DNA from: Hormiphora californensis
Taxonomy: Eukaryota > Animalia > Ctenophora
Direction: 5' to 3'
Assembly: GCA_020137815.1 (NCBI GenBank)
Contig: CM035360.1
Location: 3,472,001 to 3,536,000, forward strand
DNA length: 64,000 nucleotides
The position numbers were made by a program, and so were the translations under genes. The notes beneath the pieces were generated by a model. That model worked only from the letters and a program-made list of their open reading frames with translations, did not search any database and had not been told where the DNA came from. Positions 1 through 63,300 of this stretch are shown one piece after another. The first letter of the stretch is position 1; each line of letters starts with the position of its first letter.

Positions 1-2430
1 CCTCACATTGTTAACCTGACGTTCAAGGCCAAGATTGTGATCCAAAAGAATTCCTAGGGTTTTACCATCTGTTCCACTACATTCACTAGGAGAGATTTCC
101 GTTCCTCCAAAGTTGATAACTGGATCAAAAGAGACTTTGCTTAGAGAACTGCGCTTTCCAAGCAGGATGAATTCCGTTTTTGCCTCATTACACTTCAACC
201 ACTGCCCCACCATCCACTTCTTCACTTTCGCTAGACACTCCTCAATATCCACCTTTGCCTCAGACCAGCCAGCAGCATCCGTAGGAACCAGACTCACGTA
301 GAGCTGGGAATCATCTGCATATAACTTAATCCGGAGTCCATATGGCTCCACAATATCTTGTACAGCCTCAATGTAGAGTAGGAACAAAATAGGACCAAGG
401 AGGGACCCTTGAGGGACTCCACAAAGTAAGGCAAGGGTTTCCGAAAGACAATCACCAACCGAAACTCTAAAAGATCTGGAACTCAAATAGCTTTTAAACC
501 ATCGGAGAGGTTCACCATCCACTCCAAACCGTTTCCGCAACACCTCCAACAGCTTTCCATGGTCAACCGTATCAAAAGCAGCGCTCATGTCTAGACAGAT
601 AAGAGCTACTACGTTTCCTTTATCCATTTCCCCTAGAATATCATCGAACATGCTTGCCAATAGCGTTTCACAACTATGACCAACACGATAACCAGACTGA
701 TGTTTGCCCAAAAGAGAGTTGCGATCCAGGTAATCATTCAGCTGCGTGAGAACAACCTTCTCAAGAAGCTTAGAAAGAAATGGGATGTTCGAAACAGGAC
801 GATAGTTGCTGAGAGCTTCTCGATCTCCATACATATTCTTGATGGTAGGAAAAACAAGCGCCTCCTGGAGAGATTCTGCGACCGAAGACTGATGTAGAGA
901 CTGATTGACTATTGATGTTAATCCAGGGGCCAGATCACCTATACAGTCCTTTACCACCCAAGTGGGTAACGGATCAAGGTCACAATGCTTGCTGGACATA
1001 GACTTCACCAATGAAACAAGTTCCTCCTCAGATATCTCTTTGAATTCCTTCCATGTTGTATGACAGGTTTTTCCAGATTCCACAAAATCGCCAGCTTGCT
1101 GCTGCTCCTCATTGACTTGGGTTCGAATTTTGGCCACCTTTGAACTAAAGAACTTTGAAAAGTCATCCGCCAAGTTCTTGTTGTTGGTAGTCTCAGGAAG
1201 AATCGTTTCCGCTTTTCCCAGGAGTTTCTGTAACTTTCTTTGTAGCTTCTTCGGGTCCCCTTTTGCTGCATCTAGGTCCTCTTTGACAAAAGCTGATCTC
1301 TTTTCCTTGTCCATGTTCCCATAAAGCTTCTTCAGATCATTAAATCTCCGTTTCGCCTCCTCAGTTCCATGCTTCCTCCAGTACCGTTCCGCACTCCTCC
1401 TCTCACGTAGTATTCCTCTTAGTTCCTCATCCCTCCACGGTTTAAACTTTTTCCCTGTCCTCACTCGTTTCCTCGGTACCCGCCTTTCCACTATACTCTC
1501 CAGCCAACGATAGAAGTTCACAATACTCTCCTCTGGATCCCGGCCTAGTTCAAATTCCGCTTTCTGGAGGTCCTCTTTGAATCCTTCCATGTCCATTGAC
1601 TTGTAGTCCATGTATTCTCGAAACATTGATTTCCGCATACAAGAGTTTGACAGGTCCTGTCTCACTTGAAGCCCAAACTGCACCAGAAAGTGATCCGAGG
1701 TAGTACCATTAGGACATATTGTTATGTCTCCTAGGTTAGTTTCCTTTGTGGTTATTACCAGGTCCAAGGTTCCACCAAGTTGGTGAGTAGGTAACAGTGG
1801 TACTCTTTGCTGAAGGTCAAATGAATCCAGAAGCTCCAATAGTTTCCTCGAGTAGAAGTTGTTCTTATCTTGCACCTGGAAGTTAAGATCCCCAGCTATA
1901 ATTGGAGTGCCTTGTTTCATAGCTAGTTCAGAAAGATAGTCCCCAAACTCAGATAGAAATGTTGCCTCTGTGAGTCTTGACTTCGTTGTGTATGGTGGAC
2001 GATAAACATTACAGAGTCTCTTTGGTTGATCTCTGTCACTGATAAGAACCTCTTGCACTTGAAAAGACTTAAACTTTGTCTTCACCGGACACTGTCGAAG
2101 AACTATACCGTCCCGAAAAAGAATTCCTATTCCTCCACCTCCTCTGTCTCCTCTGGGGCATGATAAAATATCCCATCCATTATCCCTGATCTCCTGGAGT
2201 TTCCCAGTATCCGTAGACTTCAAAAAGGTTTCCTGTACGAGACAAATATCACAATCCTCTTCTTCCAGATGCGAAATAACACCTCCAGTTTTGTTTACAA
2301 GAGAACGAACATTTAATGTCCCAATCTTCCAAGTCTTTTCCTGAGCAGTTCCTCTTTGGTCCTCGTCCAGTACATGTTTTTTTCCTCTTTGCTCACACCT
2401 GAAGTCCTCTCCATTAGCCGTGCTCGCTCG
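1..2430 (-). CDS. LINE ORF2, APE endonuclease + reverse transcriptase (partial, open to window edge)
   Basis: Hand translation of the frame from 2430 to <1 shows no stop. Motifs: TLNVRSL, CLVQET, NVYRPP, AGDLNF, LDLV, SDH, NYRPVSN, LDMSAAFDTVDH, GVPQGSLLGP, YADDSQLY. First in-frame ATG only at 1920. Absent from the ORF track, probably because no stop lies in the window. Confidence 0.93.
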
Positions 2431-3551
2431 TTAATGTACGAAGGGCACCACATACTTGAAGCCGTGTGGGTCCTCGCATACTTCTTGTCCTCTCTTGATC
2501 CTCCAACTTCACAATTCACACACTTCATCTTGCCTGTTTCATTGCTCTTCTTCGCTCTGCAATCCTTTGTCTGATGTGTGCCAGCACAAAAGCAGCACAC
2601 AGGATCATCCTTCTGAGGGCAATATACAGAGCCCGCCATGTGACCGAATCCTTGGCAGTGATAACATTGGATCACATGATACCTGTTTTTGACAAAATGT
2701 TGCCGAAGACCTAAATTAAGCCTATCACCACTGCTAGCCAAAAGCCGCCGGATCTCTGGAGCCATCTGGATCACTGCATACCTATCCTTCTTGTTTACGA
2801 ACACCACTTTGAAGGTCTTGTCCTCATGATATAGCTTTCTGATATCCTCGTTTTTGTCCAAAATCGCCGCTAGAATAGCTTCTTTTTCAAGTAGTTCGGG
2901 GCCCAAGTCATTTATCGTCACCTTTGGTTCAAGCTTCTTGGTTTCCTCTGAGAAAAATGACACTGAACAATCCTGTGCAAGAGGAGTCAAAACTTTCTCC
3001 GCTTCCTTCATCTGATCCTCATTAGGGAAGTACAGCCGGGTATGGTCACTGTTCACTCTGGATCTCACCACCGGAATAGTCTTCAAGGCACTTTCCACCT
3101 TTGGTTTGACCACATTCTTCCACTTATCAGCACAGAACGCTGACTCTCCTTCTCCGCTGTTCCCAGTGGTAATGTTCACATAGTGTTTCATCGTAGGTGT
3201 CACCGGTTCCTCAGGCTCACCTGCACCACTACCAACATCATCCTTCCCTTTCTCCACAGGTTTCACTAGTGCAGAGATGGTTGTGACCAGATCTTTGTGT
3301 AACTTTGCAAACGATTCTCTCAGATCAGTTTGGTCTCCAGGAACAGAAAACGGTGCCGTCGCCGGAAGCATTTTGTAGCAGACTTTGAGAAGATCCCACA
3401 ACTGAGGTTTATGGACAGACGACGGACAAACAGCGTCACCTCTCTCTAGACACACTAAAAATTCACTACCCTTATAATTATTGAATACATCACCTGCCAA
3501 CACATCTTCAAATTCACTCTTAGTGATACAACTGTCATACGATTTAGTCAT
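2313..3551 (-). CDS. LINE ORF1, gag-like nucleic-acid-binding protein with CCHC zinc knuckles
   Basis: 412 aa; C-terminal CYHCQGFGH..C, CCFCAGTH..C and CVNC..H..C knuckles directly upstream of APE-RT. Confidence 0.88.
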   Translation of the reverse strand: MTKSYDSCITKSEFEDVLAGDVFNNYKGSEFLVCLERGDAVCPSSVHKPQLWDLLKVCYKMLPATAPFSVPGDQTDLRESFAKLHKDLVTTISALVKPVEKGKDDVGSGAGEPEEPVTPTMKHYVNITTGNSGEGESAFCADKWKNVVKPKVESALKTIPVVRSRVNSDHTRLYFPNEDQMKEAEKVLTPLAQDCSVSFFSEETKKLEPKVTINDLGPELLEKEAILAAILDKNEDIRKLYHEDKTFKVVFVNKKDRYAVIQMAPEIRRLLASSGDRLNLGLRQHFVKNRYHVIQCYHCQGFGHMAGSVYCPQKDDPVCCFCAGTHQTKDCRAKKSNETGKMKCVNCEVGGSREDKKYARTHTASSMWCPSYINERARLMERTSGVSKEEKNMYWTRTKEELLRKRLGRLGH

Positions 3552-3691
3552 CCTAAAACACCCGTTGCACGCCGGCCAACAACAAACTCTTCACTAATAT
3601 CACTCGTAAGTTAAGTTAAAGTAGGCCCAACAGAGATCTAAAAGATTAGAGAATAGATGCTAACACAGTTATCGGATCGATTGACGGCAAA

Positions 3692-3733
3692 CTCAAATTA
3701 ATTTGTTTAAAGTAGTGTTGAAAAGTTTGAAAC
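3692..3733 (-). other. Retrocopied spliced-leader (SL) exon at LINE 5' end
   Basis: Minus strand GTTTCAAACTTTTCAACACTACTTTAAACAAATTAATTTGAG, identical to 27667-27708. Matches the Pleurobrachia/Hormiphora SL as recalled. Followed by TT, not a GT donor. Confidence 0.88.
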
Positions 3734-4233
3734 AAAACTAAACAATTATCAAACAAATAGTTCTAGATGTCAAACATCCATGGCTCTAGAGTCTACCCTC
3801 GCTTTGGAGCTTGGAAAGAAAGTCTCAAGTCACCAAATTAGTACCCCAAATCTAATTGAAACATGAGACAATACTCACAACAGCTGTTGGCAAGCACTAC
3901 AGTTCCCAGCTCAGGTACTTGTTGACAGTGCATGCCAACTGCAAAGCGTGAGTTGGCAAACGATGATGGCCCCCAATAGCGCGGGATAGGGCAACGCTTT
4001 TGACTTTTCAAAAGCGTGAGCGGTGACCCGTGACGCAAGCGCTGAACTGACTCGCTTCACGTAACGACGCGAGCGCGAAGGGCTGCGCGGCGTTTTTTAA
4101 AATCTGGGTGCCTTGTCACGCGCAAATCCAGAATTAGCGCCGCGCAGTCCCGCGCGCCAAATTTTGATAAATAAAAAATGAAATTCGAATCCTTTTTTCA
4201 AAAGTTCCCAAGCAAAAAAGAGGTGTCCCGATA

Positions 4234-4615
4234 AGGAACCATAATAAAGTTCAAGAGCGCACCCCATCCAAGAGCGCACCACCTCCAAAAGACACCACTT
4301 CAAGAGCGCACCACATCAAAGAGAGCTCCCCATCCAGAAGATACCGCGCGCAGGGGACACCACGCGCAGAAGAGACCGCACGCGCAAATACAACGCCGCG
4401 CTGGTCTCTTCTGCGCGTGGTGTCCCCTGCGCGTGGTATCTTCTGGATGGGGAGCTCTCTTTGATGTGGTGCGCTCTTGAAGTGGTGTCTTCTGGAGGTG
4501 GTGCGCTCTTGGATGTGGTCTCTTTTGGGTGTGGTACGCTCTCAGGTGTGGTCTCTCTTCGATCGGGTGTGCTCTTGGGTGCTCTTGGAGGCTCTTGAAC
4601 TTTATTATGGTTCCT
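4234..4615. mobile_element. Foldback MITE with internal subrepeats, TA target-site duplication
   Basis: Termini AGGAACCATAATAAAGTTCAAGAGC / GCTCTTGAACTTTATTATGGTTCCT flanked by TA; long inverted arms built of CAAGAGCGCACCAC-type units. Confidence 0.8.
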
Positions 4616-4692
4616 TATTCTTGAAAAGGTCGGAAAACGTTAAAATCTGGGTGCCTTTCATTCAGTAATTGATTCGTAGTTTTAGCGCGCGA

Positions 4693-4752
4693 CGGGTTAG
4701 GGCTATCCGTTAGGGCCTGGTTAGGGTTTGGTTTGGGGTTATCGGTTAGGGC
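4693..4752 (+). repeat. Degenerate TTAGGG-like tract
   Basis: gggttagggc..gttagggcc..ggttagggtttggtttggggtt..ggttagggc. Confidence 0.5.
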
Positions 4753-5189
4753 TATCGAGAAGGGTCCTCGGCCGCTCTTGGTTTCTTTTGAAAGACGATC
4801 AACACTGATGGCGCTGCAGGCTGCTGAAAAAGTCGCGACAGCTGAAGAACTCGGGACAGTTCGCAGCTGTTTACTTGTCACCAGATCTAACACCTGATCC
4901 AAATTAAGCAGCGAAAAGACCTGATAAATACCTAGAAAAGGCTCCGCTTAGAGGACCCGGGCGGGAAATACTGCATCAAAAACAATATCATCCAAGTAGG
5001 ATAGCGCTATTTAAATGCCCCCTACATGAATTATGACTACATAATCTTGTTGAAAAGCTAGCCGCTTTTAGGAGCGAGGGCTGTTGAGGATGAAAGAGGA
5101 TGTGATGATGAATCTAACTCCCAGCAGCAGAACTTGTGCACTGCTGCACCGTAAATGCGGACAGTTAAAAAGCGGACTATAAATTTATA

Positions 5190-6270
5190 TTTTGTGTACA
5201 GGAAAGACAGGAAAAACACTTGGGGTTTACTTGGACATGAATCTTTCTATGGAGAGACAGGTAAACAGTGTGAAGAGGCAGTGTGGAATGCTCTTGAAGA
5301 ACCTGTGGCAGGTGAATCGCAGCCTGGATATTCCTACTAAAATCCTCCTGGTCAAGCAACTGATTGTTTCTCGGCTTGACTATTGCAACATCTTATACGC
5401 TGGATTGCCAAAGAAGCTTCTTGAAAGCCTTCAGAGGACATTGAACTCGTGTGTGAGGTTCATCTATAACCTTCATGGACACCAAGATGACTATTCTCAG
5501 TATCTTAAGGACACCCATATCCTTCCTATGGAGCAGCGTGTGGAGTTCAAGGCATGTTTGATGGCGTTTAAAATTGTTCATAACCTAGCCCCGGATTATC
5601 TCTGTGACCAAGTACCAGTTGAAGACTTGGAGGCTGTTCGAACCACTCGTGGAACTGCAACGCCTGATCACTACAAGCTTAAGTACCCTAAGCTTTCTAG
5701 TATTAATGCCAACTCCAAGTTGAGAAGGAGGAGACCGTCTGTTTTCCTACCTGAAGTGTGGAATGAGCTCCCCCTGGAGCTTCGATCAGTTGAGTCAGTG
5801 GATCTGTTCAAGTCGAGGTTGAAGACAAGATTGTTTGTGGAAGCATTCGGAGCCAACTGGGGATGAGGTTCCTTGTTTCTCCTGCTTTCATCAGGTATTT
5901 CGCCTAGCTTGTATTTATTTTCTTTTGGTACTGTTTTACCGCTCATGGTAAGGTTTTTATTGGCGTTTTACAGCATTTTTTTTCGAGTGAAGCACGAGTG
6001 GAAGTTATATTTACAGACATTTTCTACCATCTAATGTGGACGTTTTTCAATCTATATCAGTCTGTTATCTCATCTGGACAGTTATGTGAGCCGAGAGTGT
6101 TTAATTCAGTTTAATTCAGTGTTTTGGGCCTACCATTTTTTGATATACGTCTTTAAGTAACCGCTCAGATCGCCTCTCAGTGTCAGTGTCAGTTCTACTA
6201 CCCTGGCCCTGTGAGGTAAGGGCGGCATATAAATAGACATATTATTATTATTATTATTATTGTATTGTAT
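5190..6270 (+). mobile_element. 5'-truncated L2-like LINE (ORF2 C-terminus + 3' UTR + (TAT)n tail)
   Basis: ORF 5192-5866 with KTLGVYLD, SRLDYCN..YAGLP, WNELP..LR, FKSRLKT; ends in tattattattat at ~6240-6262. Homologous to, but distinct from, the element at 1-3733 (GKTLGILLDHNLGLERQVN vs GKTLGVYLDMNLSMERQVN). Confidence 0.88.
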
Positions 6271-19027: not shown

Positions 19028-39578
<20,551 letters not shown>

Positions 39579-39738
39579 GGGATCCTTAAGAAAGGATAAA
39601 AATACATCACGTGTCTGGTGCCTATGACATTTTGCCATCTACGGTATTACGAAGGTTTAGACTTTAGCGCTGCATATTCGGCGTACAGAAGTTGCCCCAA
39701 AAACAAATCATGAAATTAGTTTCATGAATCATGACCAG

Positions 39739-40928
39739 TTAGGCCAGTCATTTTTTGTCATTTTGGGGCCGTTTGGTGAACTGAGACATAACAAAGGTTT
39801 TCCACTTGTATTGTACTCCTATGGGGTCCTAGAAACACCAAAAAAATTGTTCACTCCAACCGAGGTGAAGAAAGTGCCCAAAATGGCCACGCCCTTTTTG
39901 CCTGTATTTTCAGCCTTGACCAAAAATAGCAACTTTGCTTTGGATTGGAGTAGAAACGTAAATGAGGGCACTAAAATGTGTAGAATGAGCAGCAGAATCG
40001 ATTGGTACCAAGCAGAAGTCGTTATCTCATCAGGTTCGAGAGATAATTGGATAATTAGGTATGCGCATAACCGTTTTGAGCCATATGGCTATAGCCGCTC
40101 AGGAGCGGTTTCAGAAATTTTGCTTCACAGGAGCTTGTTCAGCATATAAAAATTAGTGGGGGTAACAAATATGAAGTTTTTATTGCATAAGGTCAATGAG
40201 TTATTCAACTTTAAAGATCGAAAAATGGGGGTAAAAAGTCGAAATTTGGTTCATTTTCCTTCATTTTACCCTCATTTTTCGATCTTTAAAGTTGAATAAC
40301 TCATTGACCTTATGCGATAAAAACTTCATATTTATTACCCCCACTAATTTTTATATGCTGAACAAGCTCCTGTGAAGCAAAATTTCTGAAACCGCTCCTG
40401 AGCGGCTATAGCCATATGGAGGCGAGACACTGTGTTGAGACACGCACCATTGCGACGCGCATTGCGACGCGCATTTTGGCTTTGCAACGCGCATTTTGGC
40501 ATTGCGACGCGCACATGCGCGTCGCAAAGCCAAAATGCGTGTCGCAATGCGCGTCGCAATGGTGCGCGTCTCAACACAGTGTCTCGCCTCCATGGCTCAA
40601 AAACGGTTATGCGCATACCTAATTATCCAATTATCTCTCGAACCTGATGAGATAACGACTTCTGCTTGGTACCAATCGATTCTGCTGCTCATTCTACACA
40701 TTTTAGTGCCCTCATTTACGTTTCTACTCCAATCCAAAGCAAAGTTGCTATTTTTGGTCAAGGCTGAAAATACAGGCAAAAAGGGCGTGGCCATTTTGGG
40801 CACTTTCTTCACCTCGGTTGGAGTGAACAATTTTTTTGGTGTTTCTAGGACCCCATAGGAGTACAATACAAGTGGAAAACCTTTGTTATGTCTCAGTTCA
40901 CCAATTAAGCAAAAAGTGACTGGCCTAA
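39739..40928. mobile_element. ~1-kb palindromic foldback MITE
   Basis: Near-perfect inverted arms from 39775 to 40902, centre ~40245; shares internal blocks with 61704-62707. Confidence 0.88.
40418..40591. mobile_element. 174-bp palindromic MITE nested in the right arm, AT TSD
   Basis: TIR GGAGGCGAGACACTGTGTTGAGA; absent from the left arm, which gives the empty site ccatATggctc. Confidence 0.85.
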
Positions 40929-40942
40929 GTGGCGGCTTTAGG

Positions 40943-53221: not shown

Positions 53222-53446
53222 AAGTTCCACACACATCACCCTTCTTCTGGCCTGCCCCCGGAAATGGGGCAAATATACAACCTGTAGTCCCGGGCTGTGT
53301 ATTGTGTACACACGACACGGTGGAGAGTTCTATCATAGAACTCTCCACCGTGTCGTGTGTACACAATACACAGCCCGGGACTACAGGTTGTATATTTGCC
53401 CCATTTCCGGGGGCAGGCCAGAAGAAGGGTGATGTGTGTGGAACTT
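53222..53446. repeat. Perfect 225-bp palindrome (112-bp arms, 1-nt spacer)
   Basis: AAGTTCCACACACATCACCC...GAGTTCTAT-C-ATAGAACTC...GGGTGATGTGTGTGGAACTT. Confidence 0.95.
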
Positions 53447-60381: not shown

Positions 60382-63300
60382 CTCTCTTTTTCTCTCTGTC
60401 TCTCTCCCTCTCCCTATTTCTCCCTCATGGTAGTACACACCCTTTTTCACCCTTTGCATTACCTCACCACCATTACTCACTATGTGTGTTCTAAAGTAGA
60501 GAATGCGCTTCCATAGATAAGAACTGTATATATAGACGAATATTTCTGAGTACCTAAGGTATGCCTTCTTTTTCTCTCTTTTGCCAAAGCAACAAAGTCA
60601 CCGATCGTGATAGTGGGTGGTATTGAAAACCGAATTGAAAAATGAAAACCATTTAAAAATTTAGATATTGAAGTTGAATATTGTCTACCCTACCAGCCTC
60701 CTAACCCTCTTATTATCTCCCTAACCCTCTAATTATCTCCCTATAGACACGATGTCCCAGTGGTGGTATACACTGACTCAGCCAGTAACAGATCATGTCC
60801 CCTGAACCTTAGAACGGTAGTGGATGCACTCATGGGAGACTGCCATAAACTATACGTGCTGGAAGGTATTGGACAATAGTCAAAACCTGTCACAGCCTGT
60901 CTGGTGACCCCATTTTGATTCTGACAGTGCGCTCAGATCAGGTCGGCACCACCAGACAGGTCGCGAATGAATATTAACTGTCACATATTAAAATTAACTG
61001 TCACGTATGAAAATGAACAAATGTCAGCATTGGTTTTCAGACAGAGTTATGCTAAGAGCTCCCCAAGTCTGAAAAAACTAATTTCTAAACCCGTTTCAGA
61101 CCCTTTTGACGATTTCTCGACGTTCTACCCCCACCTGGTAACGGTGGAAACAGTTAAACACTGTGTCAGCTCACTTCCAGGCTCCCTTGATTCAGATAAA
61201 CTCTCCGCCAGATCCCGATCACCCCGCTCAGCTTCATTAATTGGTGAGAGACACAATCTGACATAAAGAATTTGTACGTCAGAAGGGGGTACTTGTGTGA
61301 CGTCACAAGTGACAAGACCTGATTCTTGGAACGAGTGACGTCATAAACTGGTGTCGTGTGAACCTGACAATATTATATATTCGCATTTACTATGACTATC
61401 AATCATTGGGAAGGTGTATTTGATTGGGACATATATATAGGCTTGTATGTAGAACATAGAAGTAGCCTACTTGTAGTAGCAATTATGCCATGTATTATTT
61501 TCTCAAATTTTACTGACATAACGTTTTTTTTAGGTTCCAACAGACCATCGGAGATCATGCCTTTACTCTTCCTGGGGAATGAACGTGATAGCTCGGACCT
61601 TCACTTGCTGAGGAAACTGGGAGTCAGTAAGGTAGGAATATGTAAAGGGGTGGTTTGAGATATATATCAGATCTGCTCATCAACCCACTAATACTATGTA
61701 TTATAGTAGGGACGAATCTCTTATAAAAAGAAGTGGCTGACTCACTATTTGGTGGAAAGCAAATTCCGGTTGTAACCCACCTATTTTGACCCGCTGAACA
61801 CGATCCCGTTCATAGGTAAGGTCGCAAAAGTGAAGAACATGCCCAAATTGGCCACGCCCTTTTACCTGTATTTTCAGCCTGTAGCCAAAAACATAAATCC
61901 TCTTAGAATAGGAGTAGAGACAAATCTGAGGGCACTAAAGTGATCAGCGCCCTCGCATTAGTGGGGGTAGGTGCTGGAATTAAGTCTCTATCTCATCTGG
62001 TTAATTAGATAATTGGATAATTAGGTTTGCGCATAACCGTTTTTTGGCTATATGGCTATAGCCACTTAGGAATGGAATAGAGACTTTTCACTGGCGCCAT
62101 TTTGTAGGCAGTAGCCAAGTTATGGGGGGTCGACGTCGGACTTTTAAGCTCTATCTCCAACCGTTTAGCCGTTATTTGGCTTAAACGATGCTCAAAATCG
62201 GGCTTTTTACCGTTTTTCGCTCATTTTGAGCATCGATTAAGCCAAATAACGGCTAAACGGTTGGAGATAGAGCTTAAAAGTCCGATGTAGACCCCCCATA
62301 ACTTAGCTATTGCCTACAAAATGGCGCCAATGAAAAGTCTCTAAACCATTCCTAAGTGGCTATAGCCATATAGCCAAAAAACGGTTATGCGCAAACCTAA
62401 TTATCCAATTATCTAATTAACCAGATGAGATAGAGACTTAATTCCAGCACCTACCCCCACTAATGCGAGGGCGCTGATCACTTTAGTGCCCTCAGATTTG
62501 TCTCTACTCCTATTCTAAGAGGATTTATGTTTTTGGCTACAGGCTGAAAATACAGGTAAAAGGGCGTGGCCGATTTGGGCATGTTCTTCACTTTTGCGAC
62601 CTTACCTATGAACGGGATCGTGTTCAGCGGGTCAAAATAGGTGGGTTACAACCGGAATTTGCTTTCCACCAAATAGTGAGTCAAAAAATTAAGATTCGTC
62701 CCTACTATTACTAAGGATGAGGTCATGCTAATAAATAATTCAAGATTTGTCACTGATGAATCACTATTCTTGATTCTCTGCGGGTGGCCACTTCAATTTA
62801 ACTTCTCGTTTTAGAACTTTACCAAATTTGGTTCTTTACAACGCACTAACGATGTCATTGGATGCATTGATAACTACATAATGGCTGGACATGGTTATCA
62901 TGAGAGATAGAGAGAAAGATGGAGAGAGTGTGTGTGAGGGTGATAAAAGTTACGTAGTTGAATCCGTTCAACATTTTTGTTCTAAAACGTTGGCCACCCG
63001 CTATGAATCAGGAATAGTGATTCTCGGGTGACAAATCTTAAATTATATCATCATGATCTCATTCTTAGTGGTTAGAATTGTAGAGGGTGATCATCACGCG
63101 TACTATAACACTAGCACACATAACAATGTACATATGTGAGTGTTTGGTAACAAAGTTACCCCTCCCTTGCCAGCGCAAGGGGTTGTTTCGTAACCAATGT
63201 GAGTACAAGAGCGAACTTTGGATAAGATCTCTCTCCCGAGACTGTTAATCGACTAATATTTTCACCCCCTCAGGTGTTAAACGTGTCACGAAACTGTGTA

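Follow-up and report, generated by a model that had tools for sequence, protein, structure and literature searches.

The window, a 64,000-nucleotide stretch of the Hormiphora californensis contig CM035360.1 (assembly GCA_020137815.1, forward-strand positions 3,472,001 to 3,536,000), carries two LINEs on its minus strand, here called LINE A and LINE B, each headed by the same short sequence, together with a truncated LINE copy and a fold-back element that LINE B interrupts. The features are as follows, with positions counted from the first letter of the window.

1 to 2430, minus strand: ORF2 of LINE A, with an AP-type endonuclease and a reverse transcriptase (RT) identified with Pfam; incomplete, being open to the left edge of the window
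2313 to 3551, minus strand: ORF1 of LINE A, 412 aa, with three C-terminal Cys/His zinc knuckles; 26 homologues were found
3552 to 3691, minus strand: 5' UTR of LINE A, 140 nt, abutting the last base of the spliced leader (SL); the same junction occurs in metagenome contig L007
3692 to 3733, minus strand: 5' end of LINE A, consisting of 42 of the 43 nt of the SL exon; identical to 27667-27708, to the published SL and to the exon in metagenome contig L022
about 5195 to 6260, plus strand: 5'-truncated copy from another family of the LINE A clade, with a 3' UTR and an (ATT)n tail and no SL
22435 to 27871, no strand assigned: fold-back (long inverted repeat) element, its right arm broken by LINE B
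23212 to 23214, no strand assigned: 3-bp target-site duplication on the 3' side of LINE B, seen against the uninterrupted fold-back arm
23215 to 23234, minus strand: 3' tail of LINE B, two copies of a 10-nt unit
23346 to 26216, minus strand: ORF2 of LINE B, 956 aa from its first ATG, with endonuclease, RT and a CR1-type C-terminus
26360 to 27622, minus strand: ORF1 of LINE B, 420 aa, in which PHD-like and CCCH-like Cys/His clusters were recognised by eye
27667 to 27709, minus strand: SL exon heading LINE B, 41 nt specific to the insertion and 2 nt common with the target duplication
27708 to 27710, no strand assigned: 3-bp target-site duplication abutting the SL at the 5' end of LINE B

The 42-mer at the head of both elements is the comb-jelly spliced-leader exon, with which two unrelated LINEs begin. 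Its minus-strand sequence equals bases 3-44 of the Hormiphora SL as printed in PMC8527503, which by itself would place the window most likely in a pleurobrachiid ctenophore, and it is identical to the exon of an SL RNA gene in L022, where it is followed by a GTAAG donor, where the fold is stable (z -3.87), and where the SL RNA gene (693-830) and 5S rRNA (263-381 and 1041-1159) share a 778-bp tandem unit. Rfam contains no model matching this SL RNA. In the run that best matches the window, a loose end 5' of the SL resembles the L022 upstream DNA over 21 bases, as judged by eye. Besides this SL RNA gene, in which a GT donor follows it, the exon also heads many unrelated mRNA-like contigs (23 of the 34 described below). 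Over its 43 nt it contains AG at positions 1-2 and 42-43 only. A 25-nt SL core, allowing up to three mismatches, matched the window twice, compared with 0.00 matches in 100 shuffled versions, and each of the two is followed immediately by a minus-strand LINE with two ORFs. The copies in the window are not SL RNA genes, as a GT donor, SL intron and SL-gene upstream DNA were all sought and not found: immediately after the SL, LINE A reads TTTGCC and LINE B reads GCGCGC, matches to the intron do not exceed 7-8 nt, and matches to the upstream DNA reach 6 nt.

LINE A leaves the window at its left edge, so that its 3' end and target duplication lie outside. Its ORF2 gave Pfam matches to RVT_1 (1e-26) and Exo_endo_phos (2e-11). 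The same family occurs at a second site in L007, which is 92% identical in nucleotides over 3,749 bp and 95% identical in ORF2 amino acids, and which has the same SL junction; 94 of 95 aligned bases agree over the first 100 of the 5' UTR, whereas the 5' flanks are unrelated (11 of 37 bases alike). The junction position is common to the LINE A clade. The SL plus the LINE A 5' UTR has an unremarkable fold (z +1.18), and the first AG in this UTR is 31 nt past the SL. Counting from the SL, a conserved GTGTYAG lies at +31 to +35 both in the window (3661-3691) and in L003, L007, L008 and L034, and the same L2-type heads have no AG in the first 20 nt after the SL; this motif is possibly a second trans-splice acceptor or a promoter element. 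Contig depth in run X7 was about 900-5,400 per bin over LINE A and 16 in the bin 3934-4140, values that fit a multicopy family ending near the SL and that are not a copy number. In run X22, which is RNA by guess and was available as contigs only, the SL was covered and LINE A had no depth, though contigs of this kind show presence and not absence.

LINE B lies within the right arm of the fold-back element, which allows its insertion to be read directly, with the intact left arm (22435-22893) as a stand-in for the empty site. The inverted repeats pair 22435-22598 with 27708-27871 (98%) and 22596-22893 with 22917-23214 (99%), and by comparison the insertion spans 23215-27707, or 4,493 bp, with a 3-bp duplication, two of whose three bases also match SL bases 1-2. 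Because the SL is inside the insertion and flush with the duplication, it came with LINE B and was absent from the target. The fold-back element itself has arms of about 460 bp, and its inner part starts with CACTA. LINE B has a 5' UTR of 44 nt, and the fold of the SL plus this UTR is modest (z -2.52); its ORF2 is complete, with the frame open further upstream of the first ATG, and it ends in a simple-repeat tail next to the short duplication, as expected of an APE-type LINE of the CR1 group.

A preference of the LINEs for inserting into SL RNA genes or SL-like sequence, which would make the SL flanking host DNA, has some precedent in the SL-exon-targeting non-LTR elements described in PMC4640811, and the hundreds of genomic SL copies given in PMC8527503 would offer targets. 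The SL-less empty site of LINE B speaks directly against it and refutes SL-gene insertion for this element. In addition, SL-gene upstream DNA does not precede any of the elements and no SL intron follows within 6 kb of a head, and the endonucleases are of AP type and not restriction-like. For these reasons we consider a target-site preference very improbable as a source of the heads.

The two LINEs are distant from each other, with ORF2s 24% identical over 769 aa and 29-30% in the RT part, although endonuclease and RVT_1 domains are found in both, and each has the ORF1 plus ORF2 with AP endonuclease and RT of the APE-type CR1 group; the same layout is found in contigs L007, L008, L015 and L034. 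We take LINE A to be presumably L2-type from an L2-type ORF2 C-terminal motif (SRLDYCN...HILP...WNELP), present in the related copy at 5237-5866, and LINE B to be CR1-type, presumably, from the motif at its own ORF2 C-terminus; both are working labels from these motifs. Type I ORF1s, with an RRM and CCHC knuckles, are found in L2, CR1 and Jockey lineages (PMC4120745), so that the ORF1 type cannot separate L2 from CR1.

An earlier note on this DNA had described 3692-3733 as identical to 27667-27708 with similarity stopping sharply on both sides, and this is correct, as these are the only two copies in the window and self-BLAST extends the match to just 45 nt at 97.8% identity. Its description of two unrelated LINEs with divergent RTs agrees with the ORF2 comparison, and its statement that both 5'-complete LINEs in the window are SL-headed holds for A and B. 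As to its different ORF1 types, the three conserved Cys/His knuckles of LINE A and the PHD/CCCH-like clusters of LINE B are visible by eye, but the corresponding Pfam matches are below threshold (zf-CCHC_6, E 0.032, for A; FYVE_2, E 0.015, for B). The 5'-truncated copy that it placed at 5190 and called SL-less was also recovered, at about 5195-6260 and with no SL. This copy is 63-70% identical in amino acids to three LINE A-clade relatives, and with L008 and L015 it has the (ATT)n end seen among members of that clade; having been shortened by about 3 kb, it has no head at all and says little on full-length copies. A tblastn search with 14 LINE-related queries gave no further LINEs in the window.

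Several other repeats were observed in the window. The segment at 4762-5190, which precedes the truncated LINE copy, reaches a depth of about 1,900-2,100 in run X7 and is thus multicopy there; it has no LINE homology and is probably another repeat. Over 4141-4761, two runs show a very high contig depth. Long palindromic, MITE-like elements lie at 61738-62683, 39735-40932, 53222-53446, 4231-4618 and 34494-34736; the first two are related (about 73% nucleotide identity), and 39735-40932 looks nested.

Public contigs were scanned by exact match to the last 29 nt of the SL, and all 34 matches, which were in metagenome contigs, were examined; there were no matches in viral contigs and none in the genome contigs searched. 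The 34 comprise 23 contigs resembling SL-capped mRNAs, the one SL-RNA/5S array, seven LINEs, which came from seawater samples, and three contigs with single ORFs. The first group starts at the SL (at most 7 nt upstream) and continues into non-LINE ORFs, 21 of the 23 having a Pfam family at E of 1e-3 or less, so that they look like SL-capped mRNAs. Two SL-capped contigs, L009 and L010, have a second, unrelated downstream ORF (ribosomal proteins) and are probably assembly chimeras, the alternative being dicistronic transcripts.

Six of the LINE contigs are near LINE A (L003, L007, L008, L015, L021 and L034, with ORF1s 43, 90, 45, 47, 34 and 44% identical to that of A), and L020 is near LINE B, its ORF1 being 34% and its endonuclease 47% identical in amino acids. 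Beyond the A/L007 family and B, they thus add five SL-headed families of L2 type and one of CR1 type. The three single-ORF contigs, L016, L031 and L032, are SL-headed as well, and two have simple-repeat tails. Pfam gave no classification for their ORFs; in the Atlas, L032 is near unnamed ctenophore clusters and L031 near PHD-bearing clusters, and a LINE-ORF1-like identity is a candidate, unproven reading. L016 over its whole length and L032 at 462-1621 each have one ORF of about 330 aa, 27% identical mutually, with no ORF2 and with simple-repeat tails, and the Atlas has unnamed ctenophore clusters of a similar kind. These two are candidate ORF1-only, non-autonomous LINE derivatives of a HAL1-like kind.

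SL heading therefore recurs in at least two LINE clades and in many families. The earlier note had proposed that it is not a one-off accident, and the second site in L007 together with the further SL-headed L2- and CR1-type families bear this out, so that its interpretation, which extended to SL capture as a general property of LINE mobilisation in this genome, is supported in part. Selection by SL match leaves LINEs with no SL or a diverged SL invisible, and the contig counts accordingly give no SL-headed share. In a quick ORF1 tree of 33 proteins (seven SL-headed rows and 26 database proteins represented by protein sequence alone), the seven SL-headed rows fall on four separate, well-supported branches, and an outlying four-row branch and one single row contain none of the seven. 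A protein search of viral contigs for LINE A relatives, independent of the SL, gave 32 pattern matches, none of which was confirmed.

Could the 42-mer instead be a dispersed repeat in its own right, a coincidence or a product of misassembly? Short-read contigs can misjoin and may be chimeric at a 42-nt repeat, and in three of the ten element contigs (L008, L015 and L031) the SL is preceded by at most 6 nt. L008, L015 and L032 showed no clear target duplication, but contigs of this kind may join the ends of different copies. Chance, however, would give about 5e-16 pairs of identical 42-mers, and the SL-to-UTR junction of LINE A is reproduced in the independent contig L007. The eight contigs with at least 17 nt upstream of the SL consist of the SL gene array, five clear LINEs and two ORF1-like contigs, with no SL-headed cellular retrogene among them, and thus all seven that are not the SL gene run into a LINE or an ORF1-like frame. 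The earlier note had named a dispersed repeat beside random sequence as the finding that would count against it, and this was looked for in the eight flanked contigs and not seen. At the level tested, the repeat, chance and artefact readings are refuted, and we regard them as scarcely credible.

The structure of the heads was compared across 12 elements, namely A and B in the window, the seven LINE contigs and the three ORF1-like contigs. All 12 stop exactly at the end of the SL exon, and they match the SL gene over 42, 43, 40, 41, 42, 43, 35, 41, 42, 42, 41 and 38 nt; ten of the 12 have lost 1-8 nt of the SL 5' end, and the shortest measures 35 nt. Outside the 29-nt search pattern, the 5' portion of the SL matches up to the start of each head, while invariance of the last 29 nt is built in by the exact-match search. 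No SL intron was found in the 12 heads (longest match 7-11 nt), no SL-gene upstream DNA before them (3-7 nt), and no second or tandem SL relic within 400 nt of any head (9 nt). The SL is invariant across families whose ORF1s are 34-47% identical, and the 100 nt after the SL align at 59-69% between A and five clade members, which is no closer than unrelated pairs come with the same aligner (36-71%). Directly after the SL, a textbook TTTYAG is retained in L016, L020 and L032. The base following the SL is T in eight of the 12 elements, compared with four of 23 mRNAs, though the elements are not independent. L016, L020, L031 and L032 also have a common 5' UTR motif in the first 45 nt after the SL, with a hairpin-like CCCC...GGGC; its carriers have unrelated ORF1s, and in three of them TTTYAG comes straight after the SL.

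An exact SL 3' junction in all 12 elements, and the position of the SL inside the insertion for LINE B, which has the sole empty site, are the marks of a retroposed trans-spliced RNA. Twelve exact exon-end joins with neither intron nor upstream DNA argue against an accident, a dispersed repeat or SL-gene insertion. Since an exact exon-end junction lacking the intron marks trans-splicing, the heads very probably derive from trans-spliced LINE RNA. A different route to the same structure would be a template jump, in which the LINE RT passes from the 5' end of the LINE RNA to SL RNA or to an SL-capped mRNA. U6-L1 chimeras arise by such jumps, and a jump would likewise keep the head identical to the host SL. 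Both kinds of template are abundant, with SL on 56% of Iso-Seq reads (PMC8527503). Jumps would hardly be expected, however, to place all 12 junctions at the exon end with no remnant of intron or mRNA, nor to fix the LINE side of the junction within a family, as in A and L007, and the sole 5'-truncated copy in the window has no SL. We consider a template jump improbable, and trans-splicing of the LINE RNA itself is taken as the starting point for what follows.

With moderate confidence, and from comparison of sequences, we lean toward a mechanism in which the LINE RNA is leader-spliced by the host before reverse transcription, likely anew in every copying round. A genomic LINE copy would be transcribed from upstream, through host or read-through transcription or from a weak promoter. 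The spliceosome would then put a fresh capped SL at the AG ending the DNA copy of the SL, so that the old leader is replaced with no tandem relic left, and ORF1p and ORF2p would reverse-transcribe the SL-capped RNA, stopping 0-8 nt short of the cap, and integrate the product. With AG as the last two bases of the exon, each new copy would bear an acceptor at the same junction, and the head would renew itself, always matching the current SL of the host. Such renewal is consistent with the presence of the host's current SL on families of very different age, with heads that are always near full length though most copies lose a few 5' bases, and with the shared junction and different flanks of A and L007 and the four separate ORF1-tree branches. 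The absence of tandem relics is also expected, though equally so if the head were fixed. Against renewal, the acceptor would have to be GAG, which seldom serves as a 3' splice site, and TTTYAG is retained in three heads and GTGTYAG in five L2-type heads, so that the copied RNA was not spliced at the best-looking acceptor. The 29-nt invariance produced by the search design, the possible chimeras and the short upstream sequence of three of the ten contigs also reduce the weight of the comparison.

The weak acceptor and the retained motifs would be accommodated if the SL had been captured once per LINE lineage by trans-splicing and then transmitted as part of the element's own 5' UTR, transcribed from the DNA copy with the help of a promoter inside the element or in the SL itself, and preserved by selection for its effect on transcription or translation. 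A fixed head of this sort explains the exact junction and the retained TTTYAG and GTGTYAG without a GAG acceptor. The nematode SL exon may act as an internal promoter. A promoter role is also proposed for the DNA-encoded SL relics of dinoflagellate retrogenes (PMC5585692). A fixed head would nonetheless need several captures and then no drift over 35-43 nt while ORF1s diverged to 34-47% identity, and the shortening of ten of the 12 heads by 1-8 nt, with none below 35 nt, fits resetting better than cumulative erosion. We therefore judge a fixed head to be on the whole unlikely, though deserving of serious weight, and retain repeated leader splicing as the preferred account.

LINEs must restore their 5' end in each copying round, and known LINEs use internal promoters or ribozymes. 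That LINEs of two clades or more, and of many families, have the host SL as their 5' end suggests a third way, host trans-splicing. More tentatively, and as a suggestion on which we remain nearly evenly divided, full-length CR1-group LINEs of pleurobrachiids may as a rule need no promoter-defined 5' end, with read-through RNA being SL-trimmed and capped at the AG of the SL copy; the 5' end would then be a self-regenerating splice site evolving with the host SL, and most dispersed ctenophore SL loci would be LINE heads that form a dated fossil record of host SLs. The elements may account for many of the hundreds of leader copies scattered in comb-jelly genomes, and LINE heads may inflate SL-gene counts and 'shared first exon' gene models. 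Conversely, the SL is a simple tag for full-length LINE 5' ends in ctenophore assemblies, and two questions can be tested directly, whether the heads follow the SL of each host species and whether extinct SL variants survive in old copies.

Among known systems, small-RNA-headed retroelements include tRNA-, 5S- and 7SL-headed SINEs, snRNA-headed SINEU and U6-L1 chimeras. The present elements resemble these in starting with the sequence of a host small RNA, but here it is joined at the splice donor boundary, and the elements code for proteins and are for the most part autonomous. CRE and SLACS insert at SL-gene targets. With NeSL, they share with the present elements an SL exon beside a non-LTR element, but they have a restriction-like endonuclease and insert into SL genes. 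SL-gene targeting in nematodes is described in PMC4640811. The elements described here have no restriction-like endonuclease and no SL-gene insertion; they are APE-type CR1-group LINEs that bring the SL to unrelated sites.

Schultz et al. 2021 (PMC8527503) report 718 leader copies in the H. californensis genome and 491 in that of Mnemiopsis leidyi, which the accessible text treats as spliced-leader loci and mapping artefacts, with no link there to LINE 5' ends. The dispersed sequence is the same, and the present results offer a concrete reinterpretation of both sets, as dispersed copies here head LINEs and the genuine SL gene belongs to a tandem array together with 5S rRNA. No title or abstract found in the literature search presents an SL as the integrated 5' end of LINE families, with subscription journals and Repbase reports lying outside its coverage, and the parts seen of PMC5890265, PMC10282587 and PMC12460157 contain nothing on SL-headed LINEs.

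The closest parallel is in dinoflagellates, where retrogenes with DNA-encoded SL relics are described by Song et al. 2017 (PMC5585692, citing Slamovits and Keeling 2008). There, as proposed here, trans-spliced RNA was reverse-transcribed and integrated with its leader, and the available text also discusses re-splicing at an AG within the relic. The dinoflagellate cargo, however, is cellular genes whose relics decay or stack in tandem, whereas the cargo here is autonomous LINEs whose heads are near full length and never tandem (n=12). In Hydra, an SL is present on about 30% of TE Iso-Seq reads (PMC12220107, in the part accessible), which indicates that TE RNAs are SL trans-splicing substrates in another animal; that case concerns RNA, while in the comb jelly the SL is the integrated DNA 5' end of LINE families.
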